Assembly: GCA_964016885.1 (NCBI GenBank)
Contig: OZ024740.1
Location: 328,166,001 to 328,230,000, forward strand
DNA length: 64,000 nucleotides
Direction of reading: 5' to 3'
DNA from: Eledone cirrhosa
Lineage: Eukaryota
The first letter of the stretch is position 1. Every line of letters begins with the position of its first letter. A program made the position numbers and the translations under genes. Under the pieces are notes generated by a model. That model made no database searches, was not told the origin of the DNA, and saw only the letters and a program-made list of their open reading frames with translations. Below, in pieces: positions 25,476-26,003 of this stretch.

Positions 25476-25661
25476 AGACACACACAAACACCTATGTATA
25501 AATTTATATGTGTATATATATATATATATATATGTAGGAGGTGAGTTTTATTGTAGTACAATAAAGCAATGCAGATATCGGATAAGAAGCACTCTACAGT
25601 TTGTAGGACTGGAGTATACATAATATATAAGATCAAAAGATGGTTAAAGGAGTTCCATGTA

Positions 25662-25728
25662 TTTTATTATGCGCATTTCAAAAACAAACATCATCATGCA
25701 ATAATATTTGTGTTTTCATCAGATAAAA
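25662..25728 (-). ncRNA. Minimal type I hammerhead ribozyme
   Basis: Reverse complement of 25835-25901. Confidence 0.85.
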
Positions 25729-25834
25729 CAGGAGGACATGATATGAAGGCTAAAAAACACTTGTGGATAGTGCATGTTGATTTAAAACTGCACTATCCAC
25801 AAGTGTTTTTTAGCCTTCATATCATGTCCTCCTG

Positions 25835-25901
25835 TTTTATCTGATGAAAACACAAATATTATTGCATGATGATGTTTGTTTTTGAAATGCGCATAATAAA
25901 A
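25835..25901 (+). ncRNA. Minimal type I hammerhead ribozyme
   Basis: ttttat CTGATGA aaacacaaatattat..atgatgatgtttgttttt GAAA t-gcgc-a TA ataaaa. Confidence 0.85.
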
Positions 25902-25933
25902 TACATGGAACTCCTTTAACCATCTTTTGATCT

Positions 25934-26003
<70 letters not shown>

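Follow-up and report, generated by a model that had tools for sequence, protein, structure and literature searches.

The insertion at 25533-25943 appears to be a head-to-head pair of terminal repeats of a Penelope-like element (PLE), and we consider it probable that the pair was made from two starts on a single RNA, each of them positioned by a stem-loop. Several features were observed among this copy and its relatives: two fixed 3' ends, a strict asymmetry between the two arms, target duplications of ~14 bp, a motif pair in full-length relatives, and clustered 5' ends. The window (the whole 64-kb stretch of DNA that was analyzed) is animal-type DNA, rich in AT and in microsatellites, and microsatellites dominated the repeat search.

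Read on the minus strand, the 25533 copy consists of (TA)n, a tail-less inverted arm, a 14-nt centre, a sense arm, an 87-nt tail, and (TA)n. The arms (25620-25774 and 25789-25943) are identical at 155 of 155 positions, confirming the perfect 155-bp arms described in an earlier reading made from the sequence only. The tail (25533..25619, minus strand) is found on one arm only and is made up of the stem-loop and a further 55 nt; its outer end, which borders the (TA)n target at 25513..25532, would correspond to the second (downstream) cDNA start. Stem-loop 1 (25588..25615, minus strand) has the conserved form ACTC, inner stem-loop, TA bulge, GAGT, GCT, and is weak by folding energy alone (z -0.63). 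The tail-bearing arm (25620..25774, minus strand) contains a type I hammerhead motif with its core at 25722 and a predicted cut after 25668. The centre (25775..25788, plus strand) is extra 5' sequence of the tail-less arm, and matches both the sibling copy at 52919-52933 and the loose ends at 25772-25774 described below. The tail-less arm (25789..25943, plus strand) has its hammerhead core at 25841 and a predicted cut after 25895. It stops 4 nt short of the ACTC…GAGT stem, at a junction common to 58 contigs, and abuts the (TA)n target at 25944..25996. A decayed coding-like stretch at 24800-25450 directly adjoins the insertion; by eye, it resembles the C-terminus of a restriction-like-endonuclease non-LTR retroelement.

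There are six such fold-backs in the window, and all six are asymmetric, with one tailed and one tail-less arm. The sequence-only reading had stated that their inverted arm ends abut the ACTC stem. All six ends are present, with the tail-less arms merging into TA 2-8 nt 5' of the stem. ACTC starts at 8271, 25615, 45022, 46083 (mutated to ACTG), 52433 and 54074; the positions listed earlier were each 1 nt off, as the preceding base had been counted. Assuming uniformity between the hammerhead cut and the tail end, the chance of six ends falling in one 12-nt band is ~3e-7. A stem-loop descriptor, composed after the copies had been inspected, gave 8 exact matches in the window compared to a mean of 0.11 (maximum 1) in 100 block shuffles, and at each exact match a TA run begins 48-79 nt past GAGT. 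A TA run terminates all nine tailed copies in the window, and the tails are ~70-105 nt in the window (~65-110 nt at the widest), with 41-72 nt past the motif.

The sibling of the 25533 copy, in the same family, lies at 52765..54158 (plus strand; the 54069 copy) and has 137-bp identical arms with a centre of ~1 kb. This centre includes, at 53601-53930, a 330-bp exact copy of host DNA whose source (54507-54836) is downstream. The copy is joined at a T run that is shared with the sense arm, and the preceding part of the centre (52943-53600) is GA-rich with an internal 79% repeat. Family A is represented by a fold-back at 7805..8360 (plus strand; hammerheads at 7912 (-) and 8159 (+), stem-loop at 8271), and family C by a fold-back at 44928..45362 (minus strand; hammerheads at 45130 (-) and 45262 (+), stem-loop at 45022), in which the tailed arm begins at an initiator-like TCACT. 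Family D has a fold-back at 45846..46168 (plus strand; stem-loop at 46083, ACTG), whose tail-less arm extends to the predicted transcription start, and a tailed copy at 41554..41852 (plus strand) with a TATA motif at 41554, TCACT (A at 41586), a hammerhead at 41650 and a stem-loop at 41761. Family E has a fold-back at 52362..52550 (minus strand; stem-loop at 52433), in which the hammerhead core is degenerate, and a sibling at 3574..3686 (plus strand; stem-loop at 3607) with a probable 12-nt inverted mini-arm. Family G has a tailed copy at 9770..9913 (plus strand; stem-loop at 9850) and a tail-less arm at 54190..54310 (minus strand). The tail-less arm had been described as lone and as ending a dozen nt before the position of the sibling's motif. 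It ends ~7 nt before it, and it contains a hairpin centre (~54258-54301), after which comes a remnant resembling a tail end; we therefore read it as a likely fold-back that has lost most of its second arm.

Using our own descriptor, we found type I hammerhead motifs with a palindromic helix III in the 25533 arms and in families A, C and D. An Rfam search of the window had no hammerhead family among the best 150 of 295 matches listed, and the hairpin matches among those listed were all sub-threshold. There is another type I hammerhead motif at 26813-26889 (plus strand), with a long helix II and with no stem-loop or TA run downstream, that probably belongs to another PLE family. A further fold-back family in TA-rich DNA (27940-28225 and 20084-20244) had no stem-loop or hammerhead match, and short palindromic inserts are found at 17247-17306 (ending in a TA run), 37579-37664 and 44436-44500. 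An abundant SINE-like family (10074-10288, 19765-19984, 20828-21013, 36540-36731, 41338-41488, 52595-52722 and 57270-57476) often terminates in (TA)n, and one of its copies provides the TA run beside the 52765 arm.

Contigs of four runs were aligned to 25526-25788. In run X1, 3742 contigs aligned, 217 of them fitting partly. The largest loose-end group among the matches listed was a TA run at 25615 (58 of the 217 partly fitting contigs), which was found again in run X6 (2 contigs) and is the alignment's view of the arm end. The other X1 loose ends, among the matches listed, clustered at 25635 (39 contigs; likely a subfamily variant), at 25772-25774 (37 contigs; the element's own upstream sequence) and at 25532 (9 contigs; TA beyond the tail). 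Run X9 gave four single contigs with 5' junctions at 25624, 25627, 25637 and 25775, so some 5' scatter exists. Contig depth, which is not a copy number, was greater over the arm than over the tail. Among the matches listed, no contig over 25526-25788 continued beyond the tail end in the window's families, and the tail pattern of the 25533 family had no match in metagenome contigs.

We think that the inserts are terminal-repeat fragments of PLEs and likely belong to the Hydra clade, judging from sequence features. Head-to-head repeats, a one-sided tail and a hammerhead make up the published PLE insertion signature (PMC8557442, PMC3846280), and the window copies have the head-to-head terminal repeats, one-sided tail and type I minimal hammerhead motif of endonuclease-bearing PLEs. 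They also have the preference for (TA)n targets described for Hydra elements (PMC8557442), and their tails are longer than the 30-40 nt given in the same source. The window has no ORF with an RT (reverse transcriptase) of the telomerase-like kind and a GIY-YIG endonuclease, and the open frame of the family A arm has none of the Hydra motifs searched for. The copies are fragments, and with no Hydra ORF in the window, clade membership is likely rather than certain. Two relatives, L018 and L054, have intact Hydra-type ORFs of >700 aa with no Pfam match. Both contain the Hydra protein motifs (DKT, CxCX5C linker, CxxC, CxH), with RWK in L054 and RWR in its place in L018. A third locus, L017, has a Hydra-type C-terminus (69% to L054) upstream of a copy of family M1, and family M2 resembles, by eye, the 3' end of Hydra-2_Amil. 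Protein searches found two related loci in genome contigs and no relative in viral contigs.

Two other classes of element were considered and rejected. Non-LTR retrozymes are head-to-tail tandem hammerhead units, and the copies here are dispersed and head-to-head. MITEs and DNA fold-back transposons have symmetric terminal inverted repeats, and the copies here are asymmetric (all 22 typed relatives and all six fold-backs of the window) and include solo copies. A bacterial symbiont assembly contains a tandem Hydra-type element (L121:2-2239) with an ORF end, a hammerhead, two stem-loops and a broken-off ORF start; it is likely host DNA carried along in the assembly, and L122 is similar. The minus strand of L070 (100-410) has two motifs and an ATG followed immediately by a hammerhead and a tail-less end, and looks like an internally deleted non-autonomous element. 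At L066:1230-1604, an M2 fold-back lies within a TA run exactly at the tail end of another Hydra-type element, and the family G arm is likewise at the tail end of the 54069 copy, so that elements nest at each other's ends.

The positions of the 3' ends were determined in related metagenome families. A hammerhead-only pattern, blind to the stem-loop, recovered at least 120 metagenome loci (of ~180 estimated), apparently animal host DNA. The set is dominated by two related families, M1 and M2, with 112 of 137 matches; the other 25 were outside M1/M2 or too short (among the matches listed). After removal of 9 contig-edge cases and 10 duplicates, 93 3' ends remained. They fell in two peaks, 63 at 1-14 nt before the stem and 30 (including two reference copies) at the tail end, with none of the 93 in between, among the matches listed. 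The sequence-only reading had proposed such a two-peak distribution as the test of its two starts, and the relatives passed it. There were target duplications at 27 of the 93 ends (among the matches listed), of 11-23 nt, mostly 13-16 nt and mostly TA-bounded. Of 26 fold-backs, we left out 2 duplicates, 1 that could not be typed and 1 arm/arm palindrome that included its flanks, likely an assembly artefact. All 22 typed, unique fold-backs had one tailed and one tail-less arm (among the matches listed). The centres of L012, L013, L032, L090 and L092 contain short repeated copies of arm ends that resemble templated insertions left by end-joining repair.

Some tail-less copies occur alone and have target duplications (L010, L014, L039 and L065), which indicates that the inner site can act as a start by itself and needs no hairpin. 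Together with the ends in relatives, these copies support the earlier proposal of two fixed cDNA starts, one just 5' of the stem-loop, as the explanation for the tail. They also bear on self-priming, which we regard as unlikely. In that account, one cDNA folds back, the endonuclease cuts the resulting hairpin by the stem-loop as DNA, and the arm end is the cut or a stop. Palindromes at inverted junctions led to the proposal of self-priming (PMC3846280), and endonuclease resolution has been put forward for the tail (PMC8557442). The arms are identical and the centres are near-perfect palindromes. By eye, among the 7 simple metagenome centres in which both arms could be typed, 5 have a tailed arm that extends further 5', which is the direction expected from a fold-back. 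However, the solo copies end at the same site with no hairpin, the tail-less arm is further 5' in 25533, 54069, 46070 and probably 3585, and ~1 kb separates the identical arms of the 54069 copy. The stems contain G-T pairs, which are more in keeping with RNA than with DNA, and PAc, the Poseidon element of Anolis carolinensis, is described as starting at both tail borders in vitro (PMC11167929).

Two starts on one RNA, the reading we prefer, would call for a positioning signal at each, and full-length relatives contain a candidate pair. The order hammerhead, stem-loop 1, spacer, stem-loop 2, ATG, ORF was seen in L018, L054 and L121. There are two GAGCACT motifs before the ATG in L018, L054, L121, L122 and the short unit L070 (spaced 40, 56, 40, 41 and 54 nt, respectively), that is, in 5 of 5 loci for which the region was retrieved, and by eye the Hydra-1_Ajap consensus has two motifs 35 nt apart before its ATG. 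In related families the tail stops 29-34 nt past stem-loop 1, which is 6-12 nt short of a spacer of 40-41 nt. L054 has a TA run at this place, beginning 33 nt past stem-loop 1 and leaving 5 nt to stem-loop 2. Among the tailed flanks listed for the metagenome relatives, none continues into the second motif. The motif pair and the mapped ends come from different families, and no one family had the two together. A further point against this reading is that arm identity could stem from later gene conversion.

The stems vary in sequence and maintain pairing. Outer stems are ACTC/GAGT (an A-T outer pair) in the window and GCTC/GAGC (G-C) elsewhere. Inner stems had at least 3 pairs in 17 of 20 motifs and fewer in the other 3, compared to 3.7 in 10,000 half-swaps, none of which reached 17. 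Pairing was counted with an anchored script, because MAFFT misplaced tails, and the degenerate first motif of L070 was excluded. Upstream DNA was available for 19 motifs, among them all five second stem-loops, and every one of the 19 has a TA beginning at -5 to -8, against a background of 0.41 each; this band was picked post hoc and several of the families are related. Folding energies are weak (z +0.19 to -2.51), and in L121 and L054 the fold of lowest energy joins the two stem-loops to each other. The support for two separate hairpins therefore comes from covariation, and their formation probably requires protein. The start position follows the stem-loop rather than AT-richness, and it is likely, in our model, that the two matching predicted stem-loops set the two copying starts on one RNA.

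The sequence-only reading had a different view of the outer start. It placed one start at the true RNA 3' end and the other 5' of the stem-loop, with an AT-rich patch annealing to (TA)n as the selector at both. We find this improbable. The tail end is probably internal, as the tail region in L018, L054, L121 and L122 continues into stem-loop 2 and the ATG, and full-length relatives continue into the ORF; this conclusion was drawn from relatives because the window's own families showed no continuation. TA runs were the only tail-end loose ends among the matches listed, which would allow for a short RNA that ends at this point. A few A/T bases are indeed common to both sides of junctions (0-6 nt, median 3, with tail-side values maybe inflated by the reference's own flank). 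However, tail ends of siblings within the window families differ by 2-8 nt, better TA patches (9 nt, within the hammerhead of families A and C) are skipped, and the main product of PAc is reported to be unchanged by a 3' extension of the template (PMC11167929).

The 5' ends are clustered as well. The sequence-only reading had the inner truncation points varying freely, but they pile up at the predicted transcription start. Among the matches listed, 55 of 61 observed 5' ends in metagenome relatives were at most 13 nt from the hammerhead core, a count that sees only copies with an intact core and misses those cut within it. The edge is at an initiator-like A ~30 nt past a TATA motif (12 nt before the core in M1). 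Thirty unique or censored copies among the matches listed extend beyond the predicted start, to at least 30 nt upstream of the core, which means that some templates begin elsewhere. In the window, arms of the similar families B, C and D begin 52-66 nt 5' of the hammerhead core, with one at 36. In family D, the inverted arm ends where its sibling has the initiator-like A, 30-32 nt past the TATA motif, and the tailed arm starts inside the hammerhead. A TATA motif was absent from the 70 nt preceding the core in L121 and in the second L066 family, and no clear one was seen in family B. The idea that the tail-less arm is always further 5' was true in the window and failed in the metagenome families.

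Copying of each arm from a separate RNA in an asymmetric complex would avoid copying one stretch twice, and a dimer is predicted for PAc (PMC11167929), but we give this arrangement little credence: in all 12 M1 fold-backs compared, the two arms agree in their subfamily variant (among the matches listed, with both variants common, at 51 vs 30 matches), which has a probability of ~5e-4 if variants are drawn independently, and the arms of the 25533 copy are identical while it and its sibling differ at 6 positions and 2 gap columns. The same pattern could be produced by gene conversion or by RNAs that come from a single source locus.

For the preferred route, with two stem-loop-positioned starts on one RNA, we propose the following steps. 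A TATA/initiator promoter in the terminal repeat would produce an RNA with, in order, the start site, hammerhead, stem-loop 1, spacer, stem-loop 2, ATG and ORF. The endonuclease would then cut both strands of the target ~14 nt apart, as we infer from the duplications, leaving 3' ends that mostly finish in TA; where an insertion lies inside (TA)n, the duplication is invisible for that reason. A protein dimer would bind both stem-loops, and each DNA end would pair through a few bases with UA 5-8 nt 5' of its stem-loop. The fixed ends are observed, and a comparison across families suggests stem-loop 2 as the cause of the tail end. Both cDNAs would run to the RNA 5' end and be joined there by end-joining, at junctions marked by microhomology, by templated inserts or by captured host DNA. 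The tail would then consist of stem-loop 1 and the spacer, and stem-loop 2 would never be copied. A single successful start would give a solo tailed or solo tail-less copy. One RNA stretch would be copied twice, for which strand displacement is our guess, and full-length copies could be made via read-through tandem transcripts or template jumps.

A more specific version of this route is tentative, at somewhat short of even odds. In it, the stem-loop pair in the 5' UTR of Hydra-clade elements docks the two halves of an RT-endonuclease dimer, the 14-nt staggered ends prime one RNA at 5-8 nt upstream of each stem-loop, the products are run-offs resembling strong-stop DNA, and tail length equals the spacing. 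Most insertions would then be run-offs to the transcription start rather than random truncations, since both starts are close to the transcript's 5' end.

If the proposal is correct, a short covarying cis-element, present twice, is the rule that positions PLE starts. Breaking stem-loop 1 should cause loss of tail-less ends, breaking stem-loop 2 should cause loss of tailed ends, and a longer spacer should give a longer tail. It would explain the abundance of short hammerhead-bearing palindromes in such genomes, offer a way to recognise Hydra fragments that lack an ORF, and delimit the smallest RNA handle for a retroelement enzyme with priming on both strands.

The proposed route resembles LINE-1 twin priming, in which both target ends prime cDNA on one RNA. 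The LINE-1 cDNAs copy adjacent stretches, one from poly(A), with variable internal sites, whereas here the same stretch is copied from fixed sites.

Among PLEs, the Hydra clade (Craig 2021, PMC8557442) shares the (TA)n target and the terminal-repeat hammerhead. The main text of that paper does not use the term "stem-loop" and ascribes the tail to endonuclease resolution, naming the formation of the inverted repeat and one-sided tail as a next task. In six Hydra consensuses inspected by eye, GCTC…GAGC-ACT was found ~40-50 nt past the hammerhead cut in Hydra-2_Amil and Hydra-2_Ajap and in imperfect form in Hydra-1_Crog, and was not recognisable in the Hydra-1_Amil or Hydra-1_Obim consensus. The window copies differ from these consensuses in having ACTC/GAGT rather than GCTC/GAGC, no linked ORF, and longer tails. 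Adineta vaga Penelope (Arkhipova 2013, PMC3846280) shares head-to-head repeats, one tail, palindromic junctions, captured host DNA, and a TATA motif with an initiator-like TCACT in the repeat. It differs in its 31-bp tail, its 8-10-bp duplications and the self-priming account given for it, and "stem" is absent from the text. The hammerheads of metazoan PLEs and retrozymes (PMC4209133; bioRxiv 10.64898/2026.07.22.740005) share type I topology, a helix III that is a palindrome, and a base left unpaired ahead of helix II, and the same sources note opposite-strand hammerhead pairs 100-700 bp apart. Retrozymes are head-to-tail tandem arrays, unlike the dispersed, head-to-head copies in the window.

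A close parallel is PAc (Frangieh 2024, PMC11167929), in which two adjacent internal RT starts bound the tail in vitro; that two starts define the tail is therefore not new. Both systems have an AT-rich target and an upstream hammerhead; PAc also has cutting and extension of both strands and a predicted dimer, which our model would share. The text covered from that paper gives two starts without a positioning rule, and describes no motif pair, one-of-each coupling or start-site run-off. In the open-access text covered, we found no description of the stem-loop pair, the one-of-each coupling or the start-site run-off. In PAc, the starts fall within the ORF and in a stem-loop rich in AC, and the tail measures 30-40 nt (PMC11167929). 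Unlike those of PAc, the starts here are in non-coding sequence 5' of an RCTC…GAGY-RCT stem-loop, and a second motif follows in full-length relatives.
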